Source of the DNA: Nanobdella aerobiophila
GTDB lineage: Archaea; Nanobdellota; Nanobdellia; Nanobdellales; Nanobdellaceae
Assembly (NCBI RefSeq): GCF_023169545.1
Contig: NZ_AP019769.1
Span: 300,001-332,000, forward strand
DNA length: 32,000 nt
Reading direction: 5' to 3'
Part shown: piece by piece, positions 1,531 through 28,925 of the stretch
Layout: each line of letters opens with the position of its first letter
How positions within the stretch are numbered: the stretch's first letter is position 1
Translations under genes and position numbers: made by a program
Notes under the pieces: generated by a model
Told to the model about the DNA's origin: nothing
Databases searched by the model: none
What the model saw: only the letters and a program-made list of their open reading frames with translations

Positions 1531-2327
1531 TTTACTTTTGAATATATTTTTCCTTCAGCAGGTTTTAATTTATTTAACATAAATCTAAATGGAGAATAAT
1601 AAATTCTTATTTTAGTTAAAGAAAAGAACATTGCAGAAATATTTTTTAATAATTTTTTAATAAATATAGATTCTTCATCATATTTCCAATATACATATAT
1701 TTTATTAATTGAAGATCTATGATAAAATGCATCTACAAACATATTACTATCATATGCAAAGCCTGTTATAATTGAATTATTTACAAAATAATATGCAGTT
1801 CTATAATTAAATCCTTTATACCCACTTTGTATATCATCGATCAATAATGTTTCTGGTAATAAAATCCAATTTAATAAAACGTATATCTTTGATAATATTT
1901 TTCTATACAATGGATAATTTTTAATTAATCTTTTTGTATAAACAAAATCGTATTTATTTAATTTTTCTCTTATTTTTTTAATTCCTAAATAATCTATCGA
2001 AGCATCAGCATCAGATAAAATAAAATATTTGTATTTATTTTTTAATCCCCATTTTATCCCCTCAATTATTGCTCCACCTTTTCCCAATTTATTTTCAAAT
2101 TTTAATAAATGTATATTTTTATATTTTTTTGAATATTCTAGAACAATTTTATCTGTATTATCATTTCCATCAAATACTACCAATATATGAAAACCTGTTT
2201 TTATATATTTATCCAAACACTTTGATATTCTCTTTTCCTCATTATATGCGGGAATAATTATTAAAGTACTAGAATCGTCAAAATCCATTATATTATTTAT
2301 AAGTTTTATTTTATAAATGGTAACCAA
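1527..2327 (-). CDS. GT2 family glycosyltransferase (dolichyl-phosphate hexose synthase-like)
   Basis: 266-aa ORF with IIIPAYNEEKRISKCLD, VVFDGNDNTDKIV and SDADASIDY (DxD). This is the classic GT-A/GT2 motif series. Confidence 0.85.
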   Translation of the reverse strand: MVTIYKIKLINNIMDFDDSSTLIIIPAYNEEKRISKCLDKYIKTGFHILVVFDGNDNTDKIVLEYSKKYKNIHLLKFENKLGKGGAIIEGIKWGLKNKYKYFILSDADASIDYLGIKKIREKLNKYDFVYTKRLIKNYPLYRKILSKIYVLLNWILLPETLLIDDIQSGYKGFNYRTAYYFVNNSIITGFAYDSNMFVDAFYHRSSINKIYVYWKYDEESIFIKKLLKNISAMFFSLTKIRIYYSPFRFMLNKLKPAEGKIYSKVK

Positions 2328-3585
2328 ATATACCTTCTAAACCATAATATAATAAGTCTAGGTAATTCACTAGATTAATATTATCTATTTTAGTACTTTC
2401 TCCTAAATAAATTACATAGTCATTTTTTATATTATATTTATTTAGAAAATATTTCAAATTTTTAATATCATTATCCTTTATATTATTTTTATATTTTATT
2501 TCAATAGGTATTATGTTATTTTCTTTCAGTAAAATACAATCAATTTCTTTATTATTTTTTCTCCAATAATATTGACAATCTAAATAATTTATTATTTTTG
2601 TTTCAAATGATATACTTTCATCAACATTAAATAAGGATAAAGATAAACTAACATCATATGGATAAACTTTCCTTAACTTTCTACTTGATGATAAAGTTGA
2701 TGGTCTAAAATTTTTCAATATTTTAATTAATTTTGAAAATTCTAATATTTTTATATATTTTTCTAATGTTTTCTTACTCATATTTAAATCTCCCGATAAA
2801 TTATCCAAATTTAATATCATACCAGGTTTTGATAAAAATAAATATAATAATTTTTCCAAATTATTTATATCAATATTTCCAAATATGTCTAAAATATCTC
2901 CTTTAATAATTTTTGAAATTATTATTTCTTTTATATATTGTCTGGAATCTTCTATATTAAAATTAACAATTTCTGGAAATGGTTTATATAAATAATTATT
3001 GAATTCTAATTCTAAATTTCTTTTTTCTAAATTATAATTTTCCAATATTTTATTATTTTTTAATTCATAATATTCTTTTATATTTAATACTGGTAATTCA
3101 AAAATAAAATATCTACCTGCTAAATTTTCTATTGCATTCTTTTCTATTAATAAACTTGAAGAACCTGATAAAAATATTTTTATATTTGTAAAATTATCAT
3201 AAATAAATTTAATCTTTGAACTCCAATCTTTTAATTTTTGTATTTCATCAAGAAAAATATATATTTTTTCTTTCCTCCAATCAATATTTGTAATCTTTGT
3301 ATATATATCTAATAATTCATATAGTTCAATATCCTTATATTCATCAAATGAAAGATATAAAATTCTTTTTGGATCAATATTTTTATTCAATAAATAATCT
3401 ATTATTTGAAATATTGATGTTGTCTTTCCAACTCTCCTTAATCCAGTTATAATTATTATTTGTCTATAATCTATGTATTTTATTATATTATTAAATATCT
3501 ATCTTTTATATTCCTTCTTTTTATCAGGTCTTACATACTTATATAACCACCATTCATTTATATCTATTAATTTTTTATCTATCAT
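2311..3585 (-). pseudogene. COG1373-type AAA ATPase with DUF4143 and a C-terminal nuclease-like motif, interrupted by an in-frame TAG
   Basis: Track ORF 2311-3390 lacks the P-loop. The same frame continues upstream: MIDKKLIDINEWWLYKYVRPDKKKEYKR*IFNNIIKYIDYRQIIIITGLRRVGKTTSIFQIIDYLL. The Walker A motif GLRRVGKTT therefore lies upstream of the track start. The TAG is at 3499-3501 (codon 29). The total 1275 nt is in frame. The C-terminus has EIDCILL...IEIKYK. Confidence 0.8.
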
Positions 3586-5469: not shown

Positions 5470-5499
5470 ATGACAAAGATTTAATAAAAAGTTTGTCAT
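5470..5499. promoter_or_regulatory. Palindrome ATGACAAA-N14-TTTGTCAT bracketing the TATA-like box of the 5511 ATPase gene
   Basis: Perfect 8-bp arms. The spacer GATTTAATAAAAAG lies at -33 to -20 relative to the ATG at 5511. Confidence 0.45.
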
Positions 5500-5510
5500 A
5501 TATATACATA

Positions 5511-6824
5511 ATGAATGAGAATAAGATATTGGAATTATTATCATCATGGAACTTTTGGGGATCTGGTATAAATATAGGTATAGAAAGGAATATATCAAAT
5601 AAAATAGTAGAATATATTGAAGGTATAAATAAGATTATTGTACTATATGGAATAAGAAGATCTGGAAAATCATATATATTAAGGCAAATAGCAAAAAAAT
5701 TAAGTGATAAGTATGGAAAAAATAATATATTATATGTAAACTTTGAAGAATCTGGATTTGTTGAAAAATTAAATTTAGAATTTTTAAATAAAATTTATTA
5801 TATTTATAAGGATTATGTAAAACCTAATATAAAACCAGTAATAATTTTGGATGAAGTACAAGAAATAGAAGGATGGGAGAGATTTGTAAGATCTTTGAAT
5901 GAAAAAAATGAAGCAATAATTATATTATCTGGAAGTAGCGCAAAATTGTTATCTAAGGAAATATCTACAATATTATCTGGAAGGACTATTAATTTTGAAA
6001 TATTTTCATTAAGCTTTCAAGAATTTTTAGTATTTAAAAACTTTAATAACTTATTAAATCTAAATAAGTTGAAAGAATTATTAAGAGAATATATAAATTT
6101 TGGAGGATTCCCCGAAGTTGTATTGGAAAATAATAAAGAAAAGAGGAGTGAAATTCTAATCAATTATTATAATACTATTGTTATAAAGGATGTTGCTTTA
6201 AGATATAAATTAAAAAATATTGAAAACTTAAATTTTCTTTCAAAATTTATTATTTCCAATGTTGGTAATTATATAACTTATAATTCTTTGGAGAAAAAAT
6301 ATGGTATACCAGTAAAAACTGCTCAAAGGTATTTAGAATATTTAAATGATGTTAGACTTTATTTATATTTAAATAATTTTTCATTTAAATTAAAAGAAAT
6401 AAATAAATCTCCTAAAAAAATATATACAATTGATACAGGTTTTTATACATCATTAGGATATAAAGTATTACCAGATAATATTGGAAAACTAATGGAGAAT
6501 ATTGTTGCAATTGAATTATTTAGAAGAAAAAGTTATTATAATAAAAATCTAGAGATATATTATTTCAAAGATTATCAACAACATGAAATAGACTTTTTAA
6601 TTAAAGAAGGAAATAATATAAAACAATTAATACAAGTATCATATATTAATAATTATGATGAAATAGATAAAAGAGAAATAAGATCATTATTAAAAGGATA
6701 TAATTTATTTAAGGAATACAATCCTGAATTATTAATAATTACTTGGGATTATGAAGATACAAAAGTTATAGATAATGTAAATATTAAGTTTGTACCTTTA
6801 TATAAATGGTTATTGAGTGTATAA
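5511..6824 (+). CDS. COG1373-type AAA ATPase with DUF4143 and a C-terminal PD-(D/E)xK-like motif
   Basis: Walker A GIRRSGKSYIL, Walker B VIILDEVQ, and a C-terminal HEIDFLIKEG...QVSY. I take the ATG at 5511 (MNENKILELL) as the start rather than the track's TTG at 5493. Confidence 0.85.
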   Translation: MNENKILELLSSWNFWGSGINIGIERNISNKIVEYIEGINKIIVLYGIRRSGKSYILRQIAKKLSDKYGKNNILYVNFEESGFVEKLNLEFLNKIYYIYKDYVKPNIKPVIILDEVQEIEGWERFVRSLNEKNEAIIILSGSSAKLLSKEISTILSGRTINFEIFSLSFQEFLVFKNFNNLLNLNKLKELLREYINFGGFPEVVLENNKEKRSEILINYYNTIVIKDVALRYKLKNIENLNFLSKFIISNVGNYITYNSLEKKYGIPVKTAQRYLEYLNDVRLYLYLNNFSFKLKEINKSPKKIYTIDTGFYTSLGYKVLPDNIGKLMENIVAIELFRRKSYYNKNLEIYYFKDYQQHEIDFLIKEGNNIKQLIQVSYINNYDEIDKREIRSLLKGYNLFKEYNPELLIITWDYEDTKVIDNVNIKFVPLYKWLLSV

Positions 6825-6983: not shown

Positions 6984-7047
6984 TTTATAAATCTTGAGAA
7001 CTTCAAGTTCTCATAATTTATAAATACTTGAGAAAAATATTTTCTCA
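6984..7047 (+). promoter_or_regulatory. Duplicated module of TATA box plus TGAGAA palindrome upstream of the 7047 ATPase gene
   Basis: TTTATAAATCTTGAGAA (6984-7000) and TTTATAAATACTTGAGAA (7017-7034) are direct repeats. Each runs into a palindrome. The first is TGAGAACTT-C-AAGTTCTCA (6995-7013). The second is TGAGAAAA-ATA-TTTTCTCA (7029-7047), which ends on the A of the ATG. Confidence 0.5.
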
Positions 7048-8222
7048 TGGATATTAAAATTTTAAGGGATATTAACCCATGGTGGGATAATGATAATTGG
7101 AAAGATCATGATTATCATTTAAATATACTAAAAAGATCAAGATATATTTATATACCAAAATGGATAGATAATATTTCTTTAGAACCATTTAGTTTAAATT
7201 TTGTTATAGGACCAAGGCAAATTGGTAAAACAACAGGTTTAAAATTATTAATAAAAAAATTAATAGAAAATAATAAAATAAATAATGAAAAAATAGTATA
7301 TATTGATTGTGAAATATTTCCAAATTTTAAGTATTTAGAAAAATATTTGTTATATTTTTTAGAAAAGGATAAAGAAAGAATATTTATTTTAGATGAAGTT
7401 TCTTCTTTAAATTATTGGTGGAAACCAATTAAATTGTTAATTGATTCTGGAAAATTAAATGATAGTATTGTAATTACTACTGGCTCAAGTTCATTAAAAG
7501 TAAAAAAAGATATAGAATTATTTCCAGGAAGAATTGGTAAAGGAAAGATCATAGAAGTATTACCATTAAATTTTAAGGAATATATAAAATTACATGGAAT
7601 AAAAGATTATAAAAAAGATTATGACAAAATAAATGAATTATTTAATAAATATTTAGATACTGGAGGATTCTTAAGTATATTAAATAATTTGCCTTCTATA
7701 GAAATATTAAAGGGATTTATAAATGAATTTATAAGATTTAATAAAAGCGAGGAAATAATAAGAGAAATATTTTCATCCTTAATACCAAAATTACCTTCTT
7801 CTTTAAGCTATAGAACCATTGCAAAAGATACATCAGGTTATTCATATAAAATAGTGCAAAATTATATAGAATTCTTAAAAGATCTATATATAATAGATAT
7901 TGCACCTTTAGTAGAAGGAAAGAAGATATTATATAGAAAAGAAAGAAAAATATTTTTTAGGGATCCTTTATTATTAAGATTATTCTCTGAATGGAGTAAT
8001 GTAAAATATTTAGAAAGTGCATTATATGAAAATATTGTACAAGAGCATTTATATAGAAAGTATGGGGAGATTTATTATTATAAAAATTCTTATGAAGTAG
8101 ATTGTATATCTAATAATTTAAAAGTTGAAGTAAAGGAAGGTAAAAGTCATAGAAATTATCCAAAAGATGTTATCATTTTGGATAAAGAAAATATACCAGT
8201 ATTTTTAATAAATTTATTTTAA
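7047..8222 (+). CDS. COG1373-type AAA ATPase with DUF4143
   Basis: Walker A GPRQIGKTTGL, Walker B IFILDEVS, and a C-terminal SYEVDCIS...KVEVKEGK. Confidence 0.85.
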   Translation: MDIKILRDINPWWDNDNWKDHDYHLNILKRSRYIYIPKWIDNISLEPFSLNFVIGPRQIGKTTGLKLLIKKLIENNKINNEKIVYIDCEIFPNFKYLEKYLLYFLEKDKERIFILDEVSSLNYWWKPIKLLIDSGKLNDSIVITTGSSSLKVKKDIELFPGRIGKGKIIEVLPLNFKEYIKLHGIKDYKKDYDKINELFNKYLDTGGFLSILNNLPSIEILKGFINEFIRFNKSEEIIREIFSSLIPKLPSSLSYRTIAKDTSGYSYKIVQNYIEFLKDLYIIDIAPLVEGKKILYRKERKIFFRDPLLLRLFSEWSNVKYLESALYENIVQEHLYRKYGEIYYYKNSYEVDCISNNLKVEVKEGKSHRNYPKDVIILDKENIPVFLINLF

Positions 8223-10680: not shown

Positions 10681-12993
10681 TTATCTTTTAAACCAATAGA
10701 ATATTAATATACCGGCAACAAATATTATAAAGAATATGAAATAGTATGTATTGTTATTTATTTCTATATCTTGATTAAATTGAATAGTTATATTTTGAGA
10801 GCCATTAACAAAAACACTTTCTCCATCTTCATAATAAATTGTATTTGTAAACAATCTTAGATATTTATATTCTGTAGGATCTATCTTAAATGAATCTCCA
10901 TAATTTAAATAAAATGATGTATTTCCTACTGTAGTTGTTGTTCCATTAGAAAATGTAATATTTATAAGAAAGGGTGTATTTATATTTATTAAATCTTGTA
11001 TACTACAATAATTTGATAGATTTAGATTTTCTGGATTGTTTATATTTATATCTATATTGTTATTTTGGCAATAATATCTTTCATTATTTGATATCTGATT
11101 AATGTTATTAAAATAAATATTTATTGTAGATCCATTGTTAAACCATAGAGATGCGTTTTCATCATAATAATTATTATTTATATAATATGAGAAAGGTGAA
11201 TAAATATTTATTAAATATTGGAAATTACAATAATCTAGTAGATATATACTAGTTGGAGAATCTATATAAAATTGTAAAGTATTATTTTGACAGTAGTATC
11301 TTTCATTATTAGATATTTGATTTATATTATTTAGGTAAATGTTTAAAATAGTACCATTGTTTTCCCATATAGATATATTCCTACTATAGTAATTTCCATC
11401 TAAGTAAAATTGAAATGGAGAATAAATATTAACTAAATCCTGTAAAATATAGTTAGGTATTATATAATAATTTTGATTCATAGTAAATGACAAATAATTA
11501 CTATTATAATTTTGACCATTTGCATTTATACCATCTAAGAACATTCTATAATAAGGGGATATATAATAACTATTTGGGAAATCTAAATTAACAGTTTGTC
11601 CGTAGGGGTAATAATTCACATATGAACTACCATTATTTGGATAATATATAAATAATTCATAATAATTTCCCGGAGTTAATTGTCCTATATCTTGGCTACC
11701 GGTACTTAATTCTACAGATCCATAATTTAATGAATTTACATTTACATTAGAAACTGATTCTGCGGTAGATATACCATAATTAAAAAAATTTTCTACTGGA
11801 GATAAATATTCTTGTCCATTATAATCATATAGAAAGTATAAAGACAAATAAGCGTTTATATTATTTATATATGTACAATAACTATTATATGGACCACTAA
11901 CAACCAATTCAGCATCTGTTGAGGCCCCTTCGGGTGTTTGATATGGCTCTACAACAATACTATAATTTATAGAAGGTACATATATGGTTACATTATCATA
12001 CCAAATTATATTTTGTCCATCAAAACTATAACCAAATTGTATTTCTGGATAAGAATTGTTTTGGGTAATGTTTATGATTAAAAATGCATTTAATGGGTAC
12101 GATAAATTATAACCATATGTACTATAAACATAATAAGATCCATTATTTAAATTACTAAAATATACTGCACCAGAACCATAGATACTATTATTATTTAATA
12201 AACTTGGAGAAGAGGTTCCATTCCATACATTATCTTCAAAATAATAATATCCTCCTGTATTGTTTATTTGTAGTACATTTTGCAACCAATAATATTGAAG
12301 ACCATTATATGTATTATCTACTAACATAACATTGAGTTGTATAGATTCTGAATCATCATTACTAGCATACGGTCCGATATCACATTCTTGATCTACAGAA
12401 CCTGAAATATTATTTATATATATTTGACCAATAAATTCGTTAGTTGTATATGTATAACCTTCAAGATTATTAGAATTAATACCTAAATCTGCAATTCCAA
12501 TTGGTCTATAAGGATTTATGGGATTTTGTGTAAGAGAATATAAAAATTGAACAAAAGAATTACTATATCCATTATTATCTATTACAATATAATAATTTCC
12601 TTGATTGAGATATAATTGAGTATCTAGATTATTTGTATCATAATAGTATATATAACTAAAATTATAACCATACTCAAAATCATAATAATTGGAATCTGTC
12701 ATTACATAAAATTGTATTGGATTATTTGAAATTAGATTTAGATCCAAATATTCTGGAGAATTAATTGATATATTATAATATTCATAGTAATTCGATAATA
12801 ATTCAAAAATATTGTTATAAGAACTACCATATGGATTTTCCAAAGAAAAAATTGTTGTATTTTGTGGTAAATTGTATTGTTGGAAATAATTACTCGGAGC
12901 ATTTTGTATATTATATCCAAATAATTGTTGAGGAAATATTTTATATAAAAAAATTAGCATTATTATCACACTAACCGTTCTTAAATATTTCAT
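10681..12993 (-). CDS. Secreted, C-terminally anchored, heavily sequon-rich glycoprotein with a thermopsin-like (peptidase A5) N-terminal domain and tandem 74-aa repeats
   Basis: Signal-like N-terminus MKYLRTVSVIIMLIFLY and C-terminal TM YYFIFFIIFVAGILIFYWFKR, with dozens of NxS/T sequons. The segments PIGIADLGI, YYWLQNVLQ...FEDNVWNGT, DAELVVSGP and YGISTAESVSNV match my recollection of the Sulfolobus thermopsin motifs (YWLQDV, DNVWN, DAELV, ADTAEA). Confidence 0.65.
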   Translation of the reverse strand: MKYLRTVSVIIMLIFLYKIFPQQLFGYNIQNAPSNYFQQYNLPQNTTIFSLENPYGSSYNNIFELLSNYYEYYNISINSPEYLDLNLISNNPIQFYVMTDSNYYDFEYGYNFSYIYYYDTNNLDTQLYLNQGNYYIVIDNNGYSNSFVQFLYSLTQNPINPYRPIGIADLGINSNNLEGYTYTTNEFIGQIYINNISGSVDQECDIGPYASNDDSESIQLNVMLVDNTYNGLQYYWLQNVLQINNTGGYYYFEDNVWNGTSSPSLLNNNSIYGSGAVYFSNLNNGSYYVYSTYGYNLSYPLNAFLIINITQNNSYPEIQFGYSFDGQNIIWYDNVTIYVPSINYSIVVEPYQTPEGASTDAELVVSGPYNSYCTYINNINAYLSLYFLYDYNGQEYLSPVENFFNYGISTAESVSNVNVNSLNYGSVELSTGSQDIGQLTPGNYYELFIYYPNNGSSYVNYYPYGQTVNLDFPNSYYISPYYRMFLDGINANGQNYNSNYLSFTMNQNYYIIPNYILQDLVNIYSPFQFYLDGNYYSRNISIWENNGTILNIYLNNINQISNNERYYCQNNTLQFYIDSPTSIYLLDYCNFQYLINIYSPFSYYINNNYYDENASLWFNNGSTINIYFNNINQISNNERYYCQNNNIDININNPENLNLSNYCSIQDLININTPFLINITFSNGTTTTVGNTSFYLNYGDSFKIDPTEYKYLRLFTNTIYYEDGESVFVNGSQNITIQFNQDIEINNNTYYFIFFIIFVAGILIFYWFKR
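10993..11436 (-). repeat. Two full 222-bp (74-aa) tandem repeats inside the glycoprotein gene, followed by a third degenerate copy downstream
   Basis: LVNIYSPFQFYLDGNYY...NNINQISNNERYYCQNN (starting at 11436) matches LINIYSPFSYYINNNYY...NNINQISNNERYYCQNN (starting at 11214). A third copy, LININTPFLINITF, starts at 10992. Confidence 0.8.
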
Positions 12994-18893: not shown

Positions 18894-19340
18894 ATGAAAT
18901 TGAATAAAAATATTATGTATTATATATTCTCAATAATAGGATTAATAATTTCTATATTTGATTATTATCAATATTATATAATAAATTATCAGATAATACC
19001 CCTATGTACTACTAGCAAGATATCTAGCAGTTTACAAATAAATTGTAATGCAGTACTAAGAAGTCAATATTCTAGAATATTCTCAATACCATTGGATATA
19101 TTTGCAATGATATACTTTTTATTAGATATACTTATATATAGATTTTTTAATAATAAGAGAAGAATAATATTCTTTTGGAGATTATTAGGATTTTTATTTG
19201 TTCCCTATCTAATATATACAGAGATATTTTTAATACATTCTATATGTATCTATTGTACTATAATGCAGCTAATGATAATACTCAACTTTATTTATTTATT
19301 ATATGACAGGTTTTCTATAAAACAACCAAGATCCGATTAA
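18894..19340 (+). CDS. VKOR (vitamin K epoxide reductase) family membrane protein
   Basis: Loop cysteine pair C...C followed by NAVLRSQYSRIFSIPLDIFAMIYF. A CIYC (CxxC) motif lies in a later TM helix. The protein has four hydrophobic segments. Confidence 0.8.
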   Translation: MKLNKNIMYYIFSIIGLIISIFDYYQYYIINYQIIPLCTTSKISSSLQINCNAVLRSQYSRIFSIPLDIFAMIYFLLDILIYRFFNNKRRIIFFWRLLGFLFVPYLIYTEIFLIHSICIYCTIMQLMIILNFIYLLYDRFSIKQPRSD

Positions 19341-19912: not shown

Positions 19913-21139
19913 ATGGTAAAAGTTTTAGTATTAGGCGCGAGATTTGGTGGATTAAGTGCAGCATATACCTTAAGAAGAATAACAGATAAAAATGTAGAAA
20001 TAAAAGTAATTAATAAAAGTAAATATACATATTTTAGACCGGCATTCCCACATTTAGCAGTTGGATACCTAGAAAAAAAAGATATTGAAATAAATTTAGA
20101 ACAAGAATTACCAAAAAAAGATATAGAATTTCAAGAGGGAGAAGTTACAAAGATTGATGCAAAGAAAAAGTTAGTATATTATACTACTAATGGTAAAGAA
20201 GTAAAAGAAGATTATGACTATCTTATAATAGCATTAGGAGCGCATTTGAGTTTTGAAGAAATTAAAGGATTTGAAGAAAACGGATTTAGTGTATGCGAAC
20301 CTGAATATGCGCTAAAATTAAGAGAAAGATTAAAGAATTGGGATGGTGGTACAATTGCTATAGGATCTGGTAAATTCCATCAGGGATCGAATCCAAAACC
20401 AGAAGCACCAGAGACTTGGACTCCACGAGCAGATTCTGCATGTGAAGGTCCTGTATTTGAGTTATCAATAATGTTAAGAGGATATTTTGCGAAGAAAGGC
20501 GTATTAGATAAGACTAAATTTATAGTATTTTCTCCAGGAGAATACTTATCAGATCTATCAAATGAAAATAGATCAACTGTAAATGGTTTATATAAGTCTT
20601 TAGGTATAGAATTAATAAATGGATTTGTGGTTAAAGAAATAGATAAAGATAAAGTTATATCTGAAGATGGAAAAGAGATAAAAGCAGATTTGACCATAAT
20701 ATTACCACCATATTCAGCAAATCCTGTGTTGAAAAATTCTACAAAAGATTTAGTAGATGATGCAGGTTTCGTAATTACTAATAAATATATGCAATCTATA
20801 AACTATCCCGAGGTCTATGCAGTAGGAGATTCTAATGCAATTACTGTTCCAAAATTAGGATACTTGGCGGTTATGAGTGCAAGAGTTGCAGCAACTCATT
20901 TAGCAAGAACTTTAGGATATAATGTAGAACAAGAAGAATATAATCCAATGGTTGTATGTGTTGCAGATAATCCATATGAAAATATGGCAATAGAGGTTAA
21001 TGATAATTCCTGGTATGGTGGAAATATTAAAAAAGCGACTCCATCAAAAATAGCGCATCTAAAGAAAGAAATGTTTACAAAGTATTATATATGGTCAAAA
21101 GGAGATATGGCCTTAGAAAAATTCTTAGCTTCATGGTAA
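19913..21139 (+). CDS. sqr: Sulfide:quinone oxidoreductase-like flavoprotein (FAD-dependent pyridine nucleotide-disulfide oxidoreductase)
   Basis: N-terminal FAD fold VLVLGARFGGLSAAYTL, then FRPAFPHLAVGY, conserved cysteines (SACEGP, VCVAD) and AVGDSNAITVPKLGYLA. Confidence 0.75.
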   Translation: MVKVLVLGARFGGLSAAYTLRRITDKNVEIKVINKSKYTYFRPAFPHLAVGYLEKKDIEINLEQELPKKDIEFQEGEVTKIDAKKKLVYYTTNGKEVKEDYDYLIIALGAHLSFEEIKGFEENGFSVCEPEYALKLRERLKNWDGGTIAIGSGKFHQGSNPKPEAPETWTPRADSACEGPVFELSIMLRGYFAKKGVLDKTKFIVFSPGEYLSDLSNENRSTVNGLYKSLGIELINGFVVKEIDKDKVISEDGKEIKADLTIILPPYSANPVLKNSTKDLVDDAGFVITNKYMQSINYPEVYAVGDSNAITVPKLGYLAVMSARVAATHLARTLGYNVEQEEYNPMVVCVADNPYENMAIEVNDNSWYGGNIKKATPSKIAHLKKEMFTKYYIWSKGDMALEKFLASW

Positions 21140-21140
21140 A

Positions 21141-21491
21141 ATGGTCGAGTTATCTGATGAAGAATTAAAATCTCTAAAAAAGTTTATAGAACTATTGAAT
21201 ATAGCAGAAAATAAATATGGATTAATATCTTTATTAGAAGGAATATTAGAAGATGAAAAAGCAGTAGGAAAATTATTATCACATATAACTTCTGATGAAG
21301 CATTGTCAATAATATCAGAGAAAGAAAATATGTTAAAAATTATAGCAAGTATTGGTGATGGATTAGAAGAACAAAATAAAGTAAAGATAAATGGATTAAT
21401 GAGTATATGGAAAGCAACACATGATAAGGATATACAAAAAGGATTATCTTTAGTATTTACTATTTTGAAAAAGCTAGGATCAAAGTTTTAA
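21141..21491 (+). CDS. Small helical protein, DUF1641-like (an SQR/NDH-II-associated family)
   Basis: It starts 1 nt after the SQR stop. Its size and helical pattern, and its position next to an SQR-type flavoprotein, fit my recollection of DUF1641. No diagnostic motif was verified. Confidence 0.4.
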   Translation: MVELSDEELKSLKKFIELLNIAENKYGLISLLEGILEDEKAVGKLLSHITSDEALSIISEKENMLKIIASIGDGLEEQNKVKINGLMSIWKATHDKDIQKGLSLVFTILKKLGSKF

Positions 21492-21567: not shown

Positions 21568-21936
21568 ATGGAAAATAAAGAGATAATTGGTTGGATTGGT
21601 ATGTTACTAGCAACTTTTTGGGCAGGAGAACATCTACCAGTAGCGATAGCATTAACATCAAAATTAGGTCCAATAGTAGGAGCATTTGTAGGAATGTTTG
21701 CAGCACTATCGATAATATCAGCATTAATATTCCTATTAAATTGGAAAAAATATTATATGCCAAATTTAGTATTTTGGATATTGATGTTTATATTGTTATT
21801 AGCAGGATACGTAGGTTATTTAGCAGGAGGAAATATATCAGCATTATTCGCAAATCAATTAGCAGAATATGCATTAGTAATAGATATATTAAATATAATA
21901 TTGGCTTTTGCTATATGGAAAGTAGATGCAGAATAA
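21568..21936 (+). CDS. Four-TM membrane protein of unknown function
   Basis: Four clear hydrophobic helices with good codon composition. The overlapping track ORF 21591-21959 (R/S/I-rich) is the wrong frame. Confidence 0.6.
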   Translation: MENKEIIGWIGMLLATFWAGEHLPVAIALTSKLGPIVGAFVGMFAALSIISALIFLLNWKKYYMPNLVFWILMFILLLAGYVGYLAGGNISALFANQLAEYALVIDILNIILAFAIWKVDAE

Positions 21937-21939
21937 ATT

Positions 21940-22218
21940 TTAATTTTTTTCATATCTAGATATTTTTAATATTTTACTTCTAGGAAATTCTTTCTTCATT
22001 AATTTATCTAATACCTTTTCTAATTGATCAAAATTAGTTAAATATCTCTGAATAGTATAGCCATGTTCATATATCTCGAAAAAAATATTATCCTTTTTTA
22101 TGATGTCTAACCATCTATCTTCTTTATAATTTTTTATTCTAATTATTTTATTATTATCTATTTCTTTGCAATATTTTAATACAGTATATATTATATTCTT
22201 TCTTTCCAACCAGGTCAT
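21940..22218 (-). CDS. Small hypothetical protein (92 aa); a paralogous fragment lies at 26971-27078
   Basis: Intact ORF. Its 3' coding part (NFDQLEKVLDKLMKK) recurs almost identically about 5 kb away. Confidence 0.5.
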   Translation of the reverse strand: MTWLERKNIIYTVLKYCKEIDNNKIIRIKNYKEDRWLDIIKKDNIFFEIYEHGYTIQRYLTNFDQLEKVLDKLMKKEFPRSKILKISRYEKN

Positions 22219-22358: not shown

Positions 22359-23801
22359 ATGAAGAGTGATTCACTAAAAACAATATTAGAATTAAGTACA
22401 AAAGATTATGATATAGATAATGAGGACTTTATAAATTCTATAAAGACTTATTACGAAGAATTAAAGGATCTAATGAGAGTCGGAGAGGAAATAAAAATTT
22501 TTGGAGATATATACAATGATTATTTTAGACTAATTAAAGAATTATATAAAGATAATAAGAGTGATAAAAACAACAGTATAAATAAAATAGATAGATTATT
22601 AATGGATTTAAATTATATTTTTAATCCAGATTCGATAGTATCTCCTGTAGAGCTTGATTATGATAAAGAAATATTCTATTTAATTACAAAAACTACTAAA
22701 AAACTAAGAAAAACATATAATAATATAATCGATAATTACATATACAGTTTAAATCAAAAAATAAAGACAAAAGAAAGAGAATTAGATGAGATACTGAGTA
22801 AATATATTGATGTCCCTTCGCGGGTTGATATGATAGAAAGTATAAAAGGAACATCAAGATATATAATAAATAGTCCTCTTACAAAGTTTATAGAGATATT
22901 GTTGAACAAAAATAATAAAGATGAAGCAATTAATACCTTAAAAAGTATATATTCAAGTTTTAATAATATTAACTATTCAAATCTACATGATATAAAGATA
23001 GATAAGAATTTGGATAATATTATAAGTTCGAGTTCTTCTATATCCACCATAATGAGGTTTTTTTACTTAATTACATTGGGTATACTCGAGTTTGTGGATC
23101 AAAAATTAATAGAATATAGTAATGAGAGCTATGCTAGATTTATAAAAGAAAAATATGGTCTAGATATAACTTTAGATAAAAAATCTATAGTAGACCAAAT
23201 CAGTGAATCCTTTTTAAAAGCAATATTTATACTTCCAGAAAGTCAGGAAAATATTGATAGAAGTTCTATGTATACAAAATTAGATAAAAGATTATTGGAT
23301 CGTTATTATATGGATCTAGAAAAATTATATAATAAAATACCTGAATTAAAGAATTTACCAGAATACAGTAATATAGAAAACCTGATAAAAGATATTATAT
23401 CTTTAGAATATTTCAAAAATCTTGTAGAAGAATTTAATGATAGGACATTTTTATCTATATCTCTTGGATATATAAGTTCAATATTAGATAGAAATGAAGA
23501 AGATAAGAAGAAATATATAATGGGTAATATAATCGGACTGATATATAAGGATTTATTAACTAGTGGGTATCTTGTTGATATTAATAAATTATCATCTGAA
23601 TATTCTAAAAAAATAATGGACTCTATTAAGGATATAGATTCTATGTATTCTACAATTATCAACAAGGAAATTTTGATTAGAAGCTTAAATAATTATAGTA
23701 AAATAATAAAAAGTTTGTATGGGTACAATGTAGTAGTTAGAAATTATATTACAGATGCAGAAAGAAATATAATCAAAGAGATCATAAAAGAAGATGAATA
23801 A
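22359..23801 (+). CDS. Hypothetical 480-aa cytoplasmic, predominantly helical protein (first gene of the cassette)
   Basis: Long ORF with no TM or signal segment and no recognisable catalytic motif. Its stop overlaps the next ATG (ATGAATAA, 23794-23801). Confidence 0.6.
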   Translation: MKSDSLKTILELSTKDYDIDNEDFINSIKTYYEELKDLMRVGEEIKIFGDIYNDYFRLIKELYKDNKSDKNNSINKIDRLLMDLNYIFNPDSIVSPVELDYDKEIFYLITKTTKKLRKTYNNIIDNYIYSLNQKIKTKERELDEILSKYIDVPSRVDMIESIKGTSRYIINSPLTKFIEILLNKNNKDEAINTLKSIYSSFNNINYSNLHDIKIDKNLDNIISSSSSISTIMRFFYLITLGILEFVDQKLIEYSNESYARFIKEKYGLDITLDKKSIVDQISESFLKAIFILPESQENIDRSSMYTKLDKRLLDRYYMDLEKLYNKIPELKNLPEYSNIENLIKDIISLEYFKNLVEEFNDRTFLSISLGYISSILDRNEEDKKKYIMGNIIGLIYKDLLTSGYLVDINKLSSEYSKKIMDSIKDIDSMYSTIINKEILIRSLNNYSKIIKSLYGYNVVVRNYITDAERNIIKEIIKEDE

Positions 23802-25005
23802 GAAAAAATTAATATCACTATTTGGTGGCCTTGTTGGAGGATTAATATCTTATATAGCGTTTTCTCATCATAACTTTGAATATGGTAATAATGTCTTAAG
23901 ATCTAATAACTCTCAAATATATACACTCTACCTAAATAGCGGCAATTTTACTGAAGGTTTATTAAAACTTGATAAAATAATATCAAACACCTCAAAAGAA
24001 AATATTACAATATTTAATGAAGGATTAAATACTAATGAAACCGAAATTTTATCAATAGTTGAAAAAATTATCGAATCTAAATATAAAAATATAGATATTG
24101 TTATAAAAACTGATATCGTAAATAGTAGTACATATATATTTTGGGAAGTTCCATGGGGGCCTCATAATGGTACATATAAGAATTTAGATACTTTTTTGTC
24201 AAATAATAGTGATATAACTCAGGGGGTCGTTATTGCATTTGATTATAATTATAATTATTCTTTACAAATGCTAAAAACAATATATGAAGCAGATACTATA
24301 AATAAAAGTATATATGTAAATCTATTTGTAACTGCAGGCAATAGAGATTTAATAAGTACTTTAAATCAAGAGCAATACAATTATCTTATAGAAACATTAA
24401 AATATATAAATAATATTTCCGATGGTGGAAACAACATCGTTATTGGTTTTAGTGAAATGGATAATCTCAATATAACTTATTTAGCCTCATTATATAATAT
24501 CATTCATGAGTATTTACCTAATGCAAAGTTATTTTATTATTCTGATCTAGGACACTCTAATAGACCCATGGAACTATATCGGGAATTAAAGGATATTTAT
24601 AATATAAAACTTAATATGATCGGTTTAGAGATGTATACGACATATATGTATAAAGATGGAGTTATATATATTCCAAATAGTTCGACAGATGATCAATATA
24701 ACATATTAGAAAATTATATAGAGTTTTCGAAAGATAATAATGTCCAATTTTTTATAGGAGAACTTGGCTTCAGAGATGGAGATAAATATGGATATATAGA
24801 CTCTGGTTCAATAAGTCCAATTGGAAGCTTAAATAATTATAGAATTACAATAGATTTCTATAAAGATATAATTAAACAATTAAACAAAGATGGAATAGAT
24901 ACAGTAGGAATATGGGATTATAATGGAGCAAATGGAGATCCTTTCGGATTATGTAGAAATCAATTTCTACCATCTCTTATAAAGTTTATTATTAATTCAA
25001 GATAG
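23794..25005 (+). CDS. N-terminally anchored exoprotein with a clan GH-A (TIM-barrel glycosidase)-like motif series
   Basis: TM helix LISLFGGLVGGLISYIAF. The ordered motifs are IVIGFSEMDN (beta4 acid/base-like), IGLEMYT, FFIGELGF (beta7 nucleophile-like GEfG) and VGIWDYNG (beta8 Trp). It has many NxS/T sequons. Confidence 0.5.
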   Translation: MNKKKLISLFGGLVGGLISYIAFSHHNFEYGNNVLRSNNSQIYTLYLNSGNFTEGLLKLDKIISNTSKENITIFNEGLNTNETEILSIVEKIIESKYKNIDIVIKTDIVNSSTYIFWEVPWGPHNGTYKNLDTFLSNNSDITQGVVIAFDYNYNYSLQMLKTIYEADTINKSIYVNLFVTAGNRDLISTLNQEQYNYLIETLKYINNISDGGNNIVIGFSEMDNLNITYLASLYNIIHEYLPNAKLFYYSDLGHSNRPMELYRELKDIYNIKLNMIGLEMYTTYMYKDGVIYIPNSSTDDQYNILENYIEFSKDNNVQFFIGELGFRDGDKYGYIDSGSISPIGSLNNYRITIDFYKDIIKQLNKDGIDTVGIWDYNGANGDPFGLCRNQFLPSLIKFIINSR

Positions 25006-25040
25006 ATATTATTTAAAAATTTTTTCTATATCATTATAGA

Positions 25041-26456
25041 ATGACAGGTACACCTAAGGGTATACGTGGAAAAATCACAAAAAAAGGTATTGCTTTAGCA
25101 GCAGCAGGAATAATTGGGAGTGGTTTGCTTGGCTATTTTATTGGGTCATATTTTCATGAACCAAAAGAGGTAATCGAATATAAATCTCAAAAAATAGAAG
25201 AATTGATAGGAACAAATTCCAATATAACAGAATTAATAAAGGATTTAAGTAATGTATCAGATGGAAAAAAAATTTTGATAATAGGAGAAGGATTGAGTAA
25301 TAATCATATATCAGATCTGGAATCAATACTTGGCCTTAAAAATGTATCATATAAATTGATTAATCTGCAACCGATAATAGAAAATCATACGGTAATAGAG
25401 AACTATACAGAAATAGAGAAAATATTCACAAAGACAAGTTTAGTTTATGCAAATGAAAGTAATATTTCATTGGTACCATTATATATAGAAGGAAAATTAG
25501 CCCAAAATGCTTCTCAATCTTATTGTTTTGTAATAGATCTATCTAATGTATCTAATAAAGCTCAATATAGCTTAGAAAATATATTAAAGACTATAAAAAA
25601 TGAGTATTCAAATATGGAGGGTTATTATATAATAAAGACTGGTAGCATACAAGTACAAAATTCTAGTATAAGTACATCAAATACATCAAGTAATAGTACT
25701 ACTAGTATAAGTACATCAAATACATCAAGTAACGGTACTAATAGTAATATAGATCAATTATTATTTGGAAATAATAGTAATTATACTGTATTAAAAATAG
25801 AAAATATATCTTATAGAGATGATATTGCATACTTATCTGTAAGAGATGAAATAAACAATAAAACATATCAGTTAGCATTATCCTCTAGATATCTAACTGC
25901 AGTATTAAATATAAATGGAAAAAGTGAAAAATTTGAGCTAAATGATGATGTATTAAAATATGGAAAACTTTATATGGTGTTAGAAAAAACTCCTGCTATA
26001 AATCAGTCAGCAAATGATAATGGAGTCCTAGCTCTACCAAATGGTTTATATGCAAGTTTTATAATTACTAATGTAAAGGGCACAGAGCTATTAAAGCTAG
26101 CACCACAATTAAGCAACTATACGCCAATAATACCAACAATGTACAATACTTCTACACCTTTTGAAATATATGGTGGTATACTAGGTAATACAAACCCATA
26201 TATAATCAATTATGAAAATATAACAGCATATAATCAGGCATTAGGATTGGTAGATACTGTAGATAAGATATTAAATCTAAGTACATCTTCAAATCCAAAT
26301 CCTGGCAGTTATGCTAGTATAGGCGGTCTTTTCCCACTGACACTCACGAATAATTATACAACTTCCACAGTAGGTAATTTTACATCATATAATATAGGTA
26401 GTTATGTACCGGCAATATTACTTATCGGAGAAGAAGGTACAAGTATAATACAATAA
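25041..26456 (+). CDS. N-terminally anchored exoprotein with a Ser/Thr/Asn-rich repeat linker
   Basis: TM helix IALAAAGIIGSGLLGYFIGSYF. A post-TM module resembles that of the preceding protein. The linker contains SISTSNTSSN twice. No catalytic motif was recognised. Confidence 0.6.
   Translation: MTGTPKGIRGKITKKGIALAAAGIIGSGLLGYFIGSYFHEPKEVIEYKSQKIEELIGTNSNITELIKDLSNVSDGKKILIIGEGLSNNHISDLESILGLKNVSYKLINLQPIIENHTVIENYTEIEKIFTKTSLVYANESNISLVPLYIEGKLAQNASQSYCFVIDLSNVSNKAQYSLENILKTIKNEYSNMEGYYIIKTGSIQVQNSSISTSNTSSNSTTSISTSNTSSNGTNSNIDQLLFGNNSNYTVLKIENISYRDDIAYLSVRDEINNKTYQLALSSRYLTAVLNINGKSEKFELNDDVLKYGKLYMVLEKTPAINQSANDNGVLALPNGLYASFIITNVKGTELLKLAPQLSNYTPIIPTMYNTSTPFEIYGGILGNTNPYIINYENITAYNQALGLVDTVDKILNLSTSSNPNPGSYASIGGLFPLTLTNNYTTSTVGNFTSYNIGSYVPAILLIGEEGTSIIQ
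25665..25742 (+). repeat. Two tandem 39-bp units encoding SISTSNTSSN(S/G)T(T/N)
   Basis: agtataagtacatcaaatacatcaagtaatagtactact is followed by agtataagtacatcaaatacatcaagtaacggtactaat. Confidence 0.85.
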
Positions 26457-26685: not shown

Positions 26686-26841
26686 TTATTCTTCATATAT
26701 ACCAATAGCATTCTCCGTTATTTCTAAATTACAACTTTTATGTTCTTTACACCACTTCTCACATTTTTCTGCTAGCTCTTTTTCTTTATAAACATAATGG
26801 CATTCTTCGCATCCATAGAATTCTTGAACTTCTATTACCAT
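26686..26841 (-). CDS. 51-aa Cys-rich (zinc-ribbon-like) mini-protein, below the ORF-track size cutoff
   Basis: Reverse translation gives MVIEVQEFYGCEECHYVYKEKELAEKCEKWCKEHKSCNLEITENAIGIYEE*. It contains CxxC plus three further cysteines (CEKWC, SC). A TATA-like TTTATAAAAAAAG lies about 25 nt upstream of the ATG. Confidence 0.5.
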   Translation of the reverse strand: MVIEVQEFYGCEECHYVYKEKELAEKCEKWCKEHKSCNLEITENAIGIYEE

Positions 26842-26970: not shown

Positions 26971-27078
26971 CTATTTAACTTTTATTATCCTTTTTTTCAT
27001 TAATTTATCTAATATCTTTTCTAATTGATCAAAATTATTTGAAATCTTTCTATATAATGTCCATAAAAATATATGCTT
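26971..27078 (-). pseudogene. 3' fragment of a paralog of the 21940-22218 gene
   Basis: Reads ...YFYGHYRKISNNFDQLEKILDKLMKKRIIKVK*, against EIYEHGYTIQRYLTNFDQLEKVLDKLMKKEFP in the intact gene. There is no in-frame ATG, and an upstream TAG closes the frame. Confidence 0.55.
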
Positions 27079-28396: not shown

Positions 28397-28550
28397 CAAG
28401 GATATTTAATAACAAGAATGGGATTTGAAAAAGGATATTAATGAACTAGAAGATTTTACTAAAGAAAAATTTAATACAGTAAGGGAATATTTAGATTTTC
28501 AACCAATTATTGAAAAATATAATAAATATTATTTAAGTTTAATAAAATGA
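28397..28550 (+). pseudogene. Second HIT 3'-end fragment, continuing as an open tail whose stop overlaps the HEPN start
   Basis: caaggatatttaataacaagaatgggatttgaaaaagg aligns to gaaggatatttaacaacaagggtaggtttcgaaaagag of the intact HIT gene (GYLTTRVGFEK). After a 1-nt shift it reads KKDINELEDFTKEKFNTVREYLDFQPIIEKYNKYYLSLIK*. The TGA at 28548-28550 overlaps the ATG at 28547. Confidence 0.55.
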
Positions 28551-28925
28551 AAGAATTAATCTATGAATATATAAAAGAATTAATAAAATCATTAAAACAA
28601 TGGGAAAGGTATGAAAAAATTGATAAAAATAAATTTCTTTCTGATGAAGATATTCAAAATATGGTAATGCATGGAATTCTAAGAGCAATACAGTCTATAA
28701 TTGATTTAGGTAATTCTATTATTGAAAGAAATATTTGATATATTGGAAAGACATAATATTATTGATAAGAATTTATCTGAAAGATTAAAGAAATTGACGA
28801 GTTTTAGAAATTTTTTAGTCCATTTATATTATGATATAGATTTAAATATAGTTTATAATTTATTAAAAAATGAAAGAATAGCATTAGGAGGATTTTTTAA
28901 TCATTGCAAAAGATATAATAAATAA
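28547..28925 (+). pseudogene. HEPN/DUF86 (HepT-like) gene split into two frames
   Basis: The two track ORFs (28547-28738 and 28722-28925) are in different frames. Together they give the DUF86 pattern ...AIQSIIDLGNSII / KEIFDILERHNIIDKNLSERLKKLTSFRNFLVHLYYDIDLNIV, which includes the Rx4H motif RNFLVH. The linker segment usually found between them appears to be deleted. Confidence 0.7.

Follow-up and report, generated by a model that had tools for sequence, protein, structure and literature searches.

A conserved gene pair for a putative GH-A-like surface enzyme and its exported partner, adjoining an orphan gene, in Nanobdella aerobiophila MJ1

Introduction

It is still an open question by what means DPANN and nanoarchaeal ectosymbionts recognize the glycosylated S-layer of a host and breach it, and very few candidate effector enzymes are known. 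Nanobdella aerobiophila is a cultivated nanoarchaeal ectosymbiont with a 669-kb genome and with Metallosphaera sedula as its host. The subject of this work is three adjacent genes in a 32,000-nucleotide (nt) stretch of the genome of strain MJ1 (contig NZ_AP019769.1, positions 300,001 to 332,000 of the forward strand; hereinafter, the window), which has a G+C content of about 22%. Their products are identical to MJ1_0374, MJ1_0375 and MJ1_0376 of the N. aerobiophila MJ1 record. An original prediction made from the sequence considered the trio to be a single envelope or glycan-remodelling or surface-display module, and the locus therefore raises two questions, namely, whether the three genes belong together and what their products do. 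According to the analysis presented below, MJ1_0375 and MJ1_0376 probably form a two-gene cell-surface module, consisting of a GH-A-like exported enzyme and an exported partner, of which MJ1_0374 is not a part. The coordinates of the three open reading frames (ORFs; 480, 403 and 471 amino acids (aa), all on the same strand) agreed with those of the original prediction and were as follows:

22359-23801, + strand: MJ1_0374, ORF of 480 aa; an orphan without a signal peptide or transmembrane (TM) segment, probably helical
23794-25005, + strand: MJ1_0375, ORF of 403 aa; a GH-A-like (beta/alpha)8 protein, membrane-anchored or secreted
25041-26456, + strand: MJ1_0376, 471 aa; N-terminal anchor, MJ1-specific region, Ser/Thr/Asn-rich linker and conserved partner domain

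Fold and family of MJ1_0375

Comparison with Pfam and NCBIfam gave no significant match for MJ1_0374, MJ1_0375 or MJ1_0376, and none of them matched a PADLOC defence-system model at E <= 0.1. The statement that none of these proteins carries an assignable motif is in agreement with the empty Pfam and NCBIfam results and fails for MJ1_0375, which could be assigned to a GH-A-like barrel. The homology search with MJ1_0375 revealed 40 relatives forming two groups. The first group included hot-spring metagenome proteins of about 335 aa (Nanopusillus/Nanobsidianus), with an identity of 46-51% over the C-terminal 73% of MJ1_0375. The second group included Sulfolobales proteins of about 700 aa, among them S. 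islandicus YN1551_2011 and a Sulfurisphaera ohwakuensis protein, as well as one protein of a metagenome-assembled genome (MAG) labelled Thermocladium (identity of 38-41% to MJ1_0375 in this search; in another comparison, the range for the Sulfolobales proteins was 37-41%). The GFSE and GE(L/I)GFR(D/N)GD motifs were invariant in the family alignment, and the series GFSEMDN, GLEMYT, IGELGF and GIWDYNG, on which a GH-A hint for the middle protein had been based, was found in MJ1_0375 in that order. The parts of this protein were as follows:

23806-23865, + strand: N-terminal hydrophobic segment, residues 5-24 by hydropathy and helix 3-24 in the AlphaFold2 (AF2) model; signal peptide or signal anchor
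23896-24111, + strand: MJ1-specific post-anchor region, residues about 35-106; low-confidence beta-alpha-beta-alpha-beta (predicted local distance difference test, pLDDT, 41-62)
24121-25002, + strand: GH-A-like (beta/alpha)8 barrel domain, residues about 110-403
24454-24456, + strand: codon of Glu221, predicted general acid/base, immediately past barrel strand 4 (GFSE; strand 215-220)
24760-24762, + strand: codon of Glu323, predicted nucleophile, in barrel strand 7 (FIGELGFRDGD; strand 318-324)

The AF2 model based on an alignment of 21 sequences had eight strand-helix units in residues 113-403 (pLDDT mostly 80-98 in the barrel and 73 overall); that is, the TIM barrel proposed as a structural check on the 403-aa protein is present. 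In the Foldseek search against the PDB, the GH53 beta-1,4-galactanase 6gpa ranked first (E = 6e-6), ahead of GH10 xylanases and a GH5 enzyme. Comparison of the family profiles with the sequence of 6gpa gave E = 4e-5 over strands 5-7, with 'kffiGElG' placed on 'vmiCEIG'. The model and the structural matches thus assign MJ1_0375 to the (beta/alpha)8 fold class of clan GH-A, and the GH-A hint was borne out. In the family alignment, the post-anchor region (residues about 35-106) fell in gaps, and residues 25-108 had no homologue in any related locus.

Predicted catalytic residues

A general acid/base Glu after strand 4 and a nucleophile Glu in strand 7 constitute the defining '4/7' arrangement of clan GH-A. 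In MJ1_0375, both positions are occupied, by Glu221 at the C-terminal end of strand 4 and by Glu323 at the C-terminal end of strand 7; the former was retained in 48 of the 49 homologues analyzed, and the latter in all 49. In the profile alignment, Glu323 was placed on the Glu of 'CEIG' in the GH53 structure 6gpa. Six other residues, Asn176, Arg184, Tyr249, Arg327, Asp330 and Asp382, were invariant in the 49 homologues.

Export and surface features

Each of the two exported proteins was previously described as having a single N-terminal anchor and many NxS/T sequons, and both the hydropathy profiles and the comparison with shuffled sequences agree with this description. The number of sequons was 13 in MJ1_0375 and 25 in MJ1_0376, compared with 6.4 +/- 2.2 and 9.8 +/- 2.8, respectively, in composition-matched shuffles. 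In MJ1_0374, no excess was found (5 vs 5.6 in shuffles), and a hydrophobic N-terminal segment was absent. The following parts were distinguished in MJ1_0376:

25086-25145, + strand: N-terminal hydrophobic segment, residues 16-35 by hydropathy
25663-25740, + strand: sequon-rich linker of the SISTSNTSSN type, two tandem 39-nt copies, 95% identical
25740-26453, + strand: C-terminal partner domain, residues about 234-471, about 240 aa

The proposal that the two proteins share a module after the TM segment was not upheld: the Smith-Waterman alignment of the post-TM parts had z = 2.7, and the observed score was reached by 15 of 1000 shuffles, while the higher score obtained with the TM helices included was mostly a matter of hydrophobic segments pairing together.

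The relatives of both proteins visibly carry the twin-arginine (Tat) motif S/T-R-R-x-F-L-K; PF10518 (TAT_signal) matched 7 of the 21 members of the barrel family, and TRRDFLK or TRREFLK was found at the N-terminus of the relatives of the partner protein. This motif with an ensuing hydrophobic stretch was not found in the MJ1 proteins, which start MNKKKLISLFGG... and ...IRGKITKKGIALAAAG..., without an RR pair. It is of note that the N-terminus of MJ1_0376 (window positions 25041-25145, + strand) reads ...KITKKG followed by IALAAAGIIGSGLLGYFIG, at the place where relatives carry Tat motifs. We take this segment to resemble an archaeal class III (type IV pilin-like) signal peptide, as on the surface sugar-binding proteins of Sulfolobus.

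The partner domain and the conserved gene pair

A word-indexed homology search with MJ1_0376 returned only MJ1_0376 itself, and residues 38-232 had no homologue in any related locus. The C-terminal domain was homologous (BLASTP E = 5e-13, identity = 27%) to the 240-aa domain of proteins of about 330 aa in the relatives, where this domain is preceded by a twin-arginine signal and a Thr-rich linker. The profile constructed for this domain found MJ1_0376 in the window at 1.7e-78 and had no match in the PDB or Pfam. The domain also occurs in a second, paralogous form, such as a 513-aa protein in which an N-terminal region, a TM segment and a long Gln-rich (QQYQxLEQQYQ) coiled coil precede the 240-aa domain. 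This form, with the domain on a long stalk, was located 4-6 kb from the pair at two related loci (L003, 7900-9441, + strand; L014, 13736-14867, + strand).

Loci containing the barrel gene were collected from genomes and metagenomes of Ca. Nanopusillus, Ca. Nanobsidianus stetteri, a divergent Nanopusillaceae MAG and Stygiolobus. The nanoarchaeal gene order was a 122-aa membrane protein, a 213-aa helix-turn-helix (HTH)/coiled-coil protein, the partner of about 330 aa and the barrel gene; the 213-aa protein was 87-97% conserved among the relatives and absent from the window. In the search based on the barrel, the partner adjoined the barrel gene in eight of the nine distinct related nanoarchaeal loci (L003, L006, L009-L013 and, weakly, L016). 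In the latter, from Nanopusillaceae KM4331-16, the protein upstream of the barrel had a Tat signal and a Ser/Thr linker, and the match of the partner profile was weak (E = 4e-4). In a metagenome search based on closer partner sequences, the barrel gene was located 15-22 nt downstream of the partner in 31 of 33 loci. Of the two exceptions, one locus broke off at the edge of the contig, and the other (L034, 1092-1244) retained a 51-aa signal-peptide remnant of the barrel.

Since the partner lies directly upstream of the barrel in the relatives, the conserved unit is the pair, and it is inverted in MJ1, where the barrel gene comes first and the partner second. Thus, the trio did not hold as a unit: outside this genome, only MJ1_0375 and the C-terminal domain of MJ1_0376 co-occur, at the frequencies given above. 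The co-occurrence expected by the original prediction was found for this pair in the relatives, whereas MJ1_0374 was absent from them.

Several loci had a damaged pair, and decay of the module is thus sporadic in natural populations. In L014 (6500-6900), the partner was cut to a Tat-signal remnant of about 60 aa, and the barrel of this locus was the sole sequence with Glu221 replaced by Gly, a single case of linked decay of the two genes. In L036 and L039, the barrel gene was frameshifted and split over three frames.

Homologues in Sulfolobales

The order Sulfolobales supplies the hosts for several of these nanoarchaeal symbionts. In the Sulfolobales versions of the barrel protein, a signal peptide precedes the barrel, which is followed by a beta-rich region, then by a Ser/Thr linker and finally by a C-terminal TM anchor; the partner profile did not match the C-terminal beta-rich region at E <= 1. 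The Sulfolobales barrels were 62-97% identical across genera and had a patchy distribution. In a crude midpoint-rooted neighbour-joining tree, they branched inside the nanoarchaeal diversity, which suggests transfer of the barrel between symbiont and host lineages, in either direction. A tblastn search of phage and plasmid collections with the barrel revealed no match and, consequently, no sign of a viral or plasmid vector.

Upstream of the 700-aa protein in S. islandicus Y.N.15.51 and Stygiolobus, genes for a 323-aa P-loop protein (with weak DO-GTPase2 and PtuA-like matches), a 526-560-aa protein and a 149-aa protein with four TM segments were found (L017, 5695-8820; L015, 3779-6764). The sets of S. 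islandicus Y.N.15.51 and Stygiolobus were about 83-100% identical, and their sequences suggest a mobile island.

Proposed function

In the proposed mechanism, MJ1_0375 would be a (beta/alpha)8 enzyme of the '4/7' type of clan GH-A that is exported, is anchored at its N-terminus and cleaves an extracellular glycan by the retaining double-displacement route, with Glu323 as the nucleophile and Glu221 as the general acid/base; the reaction may be hydrolysis or transglycosylation. The partner, with its C-terminal domain of about 240 aa on a Ser/Thr-rich stalk, would bind or present the substrate or position the enzyme at the surface. The barrel family is common to thermoacidophilic Nanoarchaeota (Nanobdella, Nanopusillus and Nanobsidianus) and Sulfolobales. 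In MJ1, the pair is inverted; both proteins would have lost the twin-arginine signals and gained the MJ1-specific post-anchor regions, and MJ1_0374 would have been inserted upstream and translationally coupled to MJ1_0375. The envelope or glycan-remodelling part of the original prediction is therefore reasonable as an extracellular, glycan-acting reading, and the part that concerned a three-gene system is not retained.

A number of observations weigh against a GH-A-like enzyme with a conserved partner. For the barrel, the Foldseek TM-scores were moderate (0.4-0.5, with a root-mean-square deviation of 6-7 A), and none of the Pfam glycoside hydrolase models matched the family: PF07745 (Glyco_hydro_53) was not reported at E <= 10 for the 21 members scanned and gave no match with MJ1_0375, and PF00150 (Cellulase) matched one of the 21, at E = 0.027, below the curated cut-off. 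Asn directly before the acid/base Glu (the 'NE' motif) is usual in clan GH-A; Ser220 occupies this position in all 49 homologues. No member of the family has an enzyme activity or substrate on record. For the partner, the AF2 model of MJ1_0376 from the single sequence had a pLDDT of 31 and gave no usable fold for the partner domain. The pair is tightly linked yet dispensable in some strains, the barrel having been lost in L034 and frameshifted in L036 and L039. Metallosphaera, the genus of the MJ1 host, had no homologue among the barrel matches. Finally, the 8-nt overlap of MJ1_0374 with MJ1_0375 argues for their co-expression, which makes a functional link in MJ1 possible. Because of the lack of a Pfam glycoside hydrolase match and the Ser in place of Asn, MJ1_0375 would represent an unclassified family working like a GH-A enzyme rather than a member of GH53, and, judging by the model, we read it as an unclassified family within the known clan GH-A.

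As for the target, a host or environmental Sulfolobales-type surface glycan or exopolysaccharide is favoured only weakly over the symbiont's own glycans, because the gene is kept in very reduced genomes, homologues are located on Sulfolobales surfaces, and surface glycans have been proposed to mediate host recognition (PMC4935971; preprint 10.1101/2023.10.27.564410). It is tempting to extend this to a host-interaction module of thermoacidophilic Nanoarchaeota, in which the glycosidase would act where the two cells touch and trim exopolysaccharide or S-layer N-glycans of the Sulfolobales type for attachment or cytoplasmic bridging, symbiont and host lineages would have traded the catalytic domain, MJ1_0374 would be a new Nanobdella-specific cytoplasmic accessory, and the barrel, with its Ser-Glu, would found a new CAZy family; in this full form, the proposal is doubtful.

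Somewhat less likely still is the explanation that the barrel processes the symbiont's own secreted or surface polysaccharide, in the manner of the BcsZ/PslG/PgaB-type hydrolases located beside a processive synthase. The motif 'RRWQTG' is typical of processive beta-glycan synthases, and in L016 (2221-3822, + strand) it is present in a 533-aa multi-TM GT2 protein (PF13632, 3.6e-7) encoded on the same strand directly upstream of the partner-like and barrel genes. Sugar-nucleotide genes (NTP_transferase, epimerase) were found 4-8 kb downstream in L003, and Nanopusillus invests heavily in surface glycosylation (Wurch et al. 2016, PMC4935971). However, the adjacency to GT2 was observed in one genome only, and BLAST revealed no homologue of this GT2, whether in the window or at any other locus. 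The sole GT2 gene of the window is small, of the soluble type, 20 kb away and on the opposite strand.

MJ1_0374 and the remaining alternatives

The first two genes had been described as start/stop-coupled and the third as following after 35 nt, and this layout was reproduced: the stop of MJ1_0374 and the start of MJ1_0375 overlap by 8 nt (ATGAATAA at 23794-23801), and the spacing between MJ1_0375 and MJ1_0376 is 35 nt. The direct repeats said to bracket the cassette were likewise found (21991-22042 and 26992-27043, 52 nt, identity = 92%), with the similarity extending to 134 nt at 75% identity (blastn). The flanking features were as follows:

21568-21936, + strand: 122-aa membrane protein with four TM segments, synteny anchor upstream of the module, 59-71% identity in relatives
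21940-22218, - strand: 92-aa gene, holding the left copy of the flanking repeat (21991-22042)
26974-27063, - strand: decayed paralogue fragment of the 92-aa gene, holding the right copy (26992-27043)

According to tblastn, residues 54-82 of the 92-aa protein match the right fragment (identity = 57%, E = 4e-5). The repeats were considered as termini of a mobile element and rejected as such, being the 3' part of the intact 92-aa gene and of its decayed copy. The flanking repeat speaks for duplication and rearrangement at this locus, in keeping with the inversion of the pair, and no mobile element is indicated.

MJ1_0374 matched only itself both in a word-indexed search of 5.8 billion clusters and when 1.84 billion representative proteins were scanned in full with HMMER, gave noise only against the PDB sequences (phmmer) and was absent from all related loci. 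By our own estimate (roughly 0.9^480), an ORF of 480 codons at about 20% G+C cannot have arisen by chance. The content of Gly and Pro is 3.5%, a helical hydrophobic periodicity was found in 78% of the windows, and no signal or TM segment was revealed; these measures fit the predicted helical cytoplasmic protein and, being indirect, support it only weakly. Two candidate kin were rejected, namely, the 526-560-aa protein upstream of the Sulfolobales homologue (hhalign probability of 1.3%) and the downstream 336-aa ORF (BLASTP E = 2.1). As far as the sequence searches go, MJ1_0374 is a lineage-specific orphan outside the conserved module. Even in the conserved barrel, the closest relatives sampled so far share only about 50% identity with MJ1, so that orthologues that evolve fast could escape detection.

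These data bear on the explanation that the three genes are one dedicated system, in which MJ1_0374 would be a cytoplasmic partner (a chaperone, regulator or export factor) of the surface proteins. The common strand, the overlap of MJ1_0374 with MJ1_0375 and the short distance to MJ1_0376 speak in its favour, and the block is bounded by a duplicated fragment of the 92-aa gene, which is consistent with its moving or rearranging as a unit. However, MJ1_0374 has a self-match only in two exhaustive searches and has left no trace in more than 40 related loci bearing the pair; the equivalent position in the relatives is taken by the unrelated and highly conserved 213-aa HTH/coiled-coil gene; and MJ1_0374 bears no likeness to the proteins upstream of the Sulfolobales homologue. 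A dedicated three-component system is consequently improbable, and the pair without MJ1_0374 is preferred.

The least probable explanation, that the barrel lacks catalytic activity and serves as a lectin-like or structural glycoprotein of the surface, in a pair of what are simply two fast-evolving envelope proteins, would account for the Ser-Glu in place of the canonical Asn-Glu, the lack of a CAZy-type Pfam match, the heavy sequon decoration resembling that of structural surface proteins and the rapid evolution of 'hypothetical external' proteins in Nanoarchaeota (Jarett et al. 2018, PMC6142677), but the two Glu residues, together with six further barrel residues of polar or aromatic character, are conserved down to about 32% identity and across two archaeal phyla, which is not expected of a purely structural role.

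Neighbourhood of the locus

Between MJ1_0376 and the right repeat fragment, a 51-aa Cys-rich ORF (26686-26841, - strand) was found, with C..C, C...C and C spacing (MVIEVQEFYGCEECHYVYKEKELAEKCEKWCKEHKSCNLEITENAIGIYEE) and the look of a zinc ribbon; it had no match in Pfam. Further downstream (28547-28925, + strand), two short ORFs (63 and 67 aa) adjoin each other; the sequence 'RNFLVH' in the second is similar to the R-x4-H of HEPN/DUF86, and, judged by this motif, the two may represent a HEPN gene split by a frameshift.

A 6-kb part of the window contains three AAA_14/DUF4143 ATPase genes that are paralogues (2311-3390, - strand; 5493-6824 and 7047-8222, + strand). In the Nanopusillus relatives, one AAA_14/DUF4143 gene lies directly downstream of the barrel gene, so that the MJ1 locus is rearranged in this respect as well. 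A 770-aa thermopsin-family protein (PF05317, E = 6e-58) is encoded at 10681-12993 (- strand) and is probably MJ1_0361, discussed by Kato et al. as a candidate host S-layer protease. The region upstream of the 122-aa gene (19913-21491 and 18894-19340, both + strand) contains a Pyr_redox_2 flavoprotein (SQR/NDH-2-like), an adjacent DUF1641 protein and, near them, a VKOR-family protein. These are redox genes of a symbiont with a very reduced genome, and this neighbourhood of the 122-aa gene is a conserved one.

Significance

For the cultivated model pair of N. aerobiophila and M. sedula, the analysis converts a 'hypothetical protein' into a testable candidate enzyme with two named predicted catalytic residues and a conserved partner, and this candidate also has homologues on the surface of Sulfolobales. 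If the activity is confirmed, the barrel would add a new glycoside hydrolase family to a known clan. In addition, the apparent three-gene system resolved into a conserved pair and an orphan, which calls for caution when systems are defined by gene order in sparsely sampled, fast-evolving reduced genomes.

Comparison with known systems

Neither MJ1_0374 to 0376 nor the barrel family was mentioned in the literature found by our search, and the text of the preprint by Kato et al. (10.1101/2023.10.27.564410) contains no mention of MJ1_0374 to 0376. In that preprint, the pectin-lyase-like proteins MJ1_0451, MJ1_0701 and MJ1_0776 and the thermopsin-like proteins MJ1_0076 and MJ1_0361 were proposed as degraders of the host envelope. 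These candidates are comparable with MJ1_0375 in that they come from the same organism and rest on the same argument (an exported, N-glycosylated protein with a degradative fold, directed at the host envelope), whereas their fold is a beta-helix or a peptidase fold and that of MJ1_0375 is a TIM barrel.

Operons combining an exopolysaccharide synthase with a hydrolase are represented by BcsA/BcsZ, PslG and similar systems. They are similar to the row found on one strand in L016, where a processive-type GT2 is joined by an exported accessory protein and by a TIM-barrel hydrolase. However, a processive GT2 adjoining the hydrolase was found only there; neither the window nor any of the Nanopusillus/Nanobsidianus loci has this layout, and the parts are not homologous to Bcs or Psl proteins.

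The GH10 xylanases and GH5 glycanases have the same fold as MJ1_0375 and the same placement of the two carboxylates, one after strand 4 and the other in strand 7 (Foldseek E of 5e-5 to 1e-3), but a family match at the sequence level is missing (PF00150, as given above), and the TM-scores are about 0.4. The closest known enzymes are the GH53 endo-beta-1,4-galactanases of clan GH-A (Bacteroides thetaiotaomicron, 6gpa/6gp5; Bacillus licheniformis, 1ur0), which share the (beta/alpha)8 barrel and provide both the best Foldseek match and the only significant sequence-profile match for the MJ1_0375 family, the profile alignment including an 'IG.S.YP'-like strand 6 and the Glu of strand 7. The MJ1_0375 family differs from GH53 in its lack of PF07745, an identity of about 10-12% and the Ser in place of Asn, and it has invariant motifs of its own, GELGFRDGD and NGDPFG.

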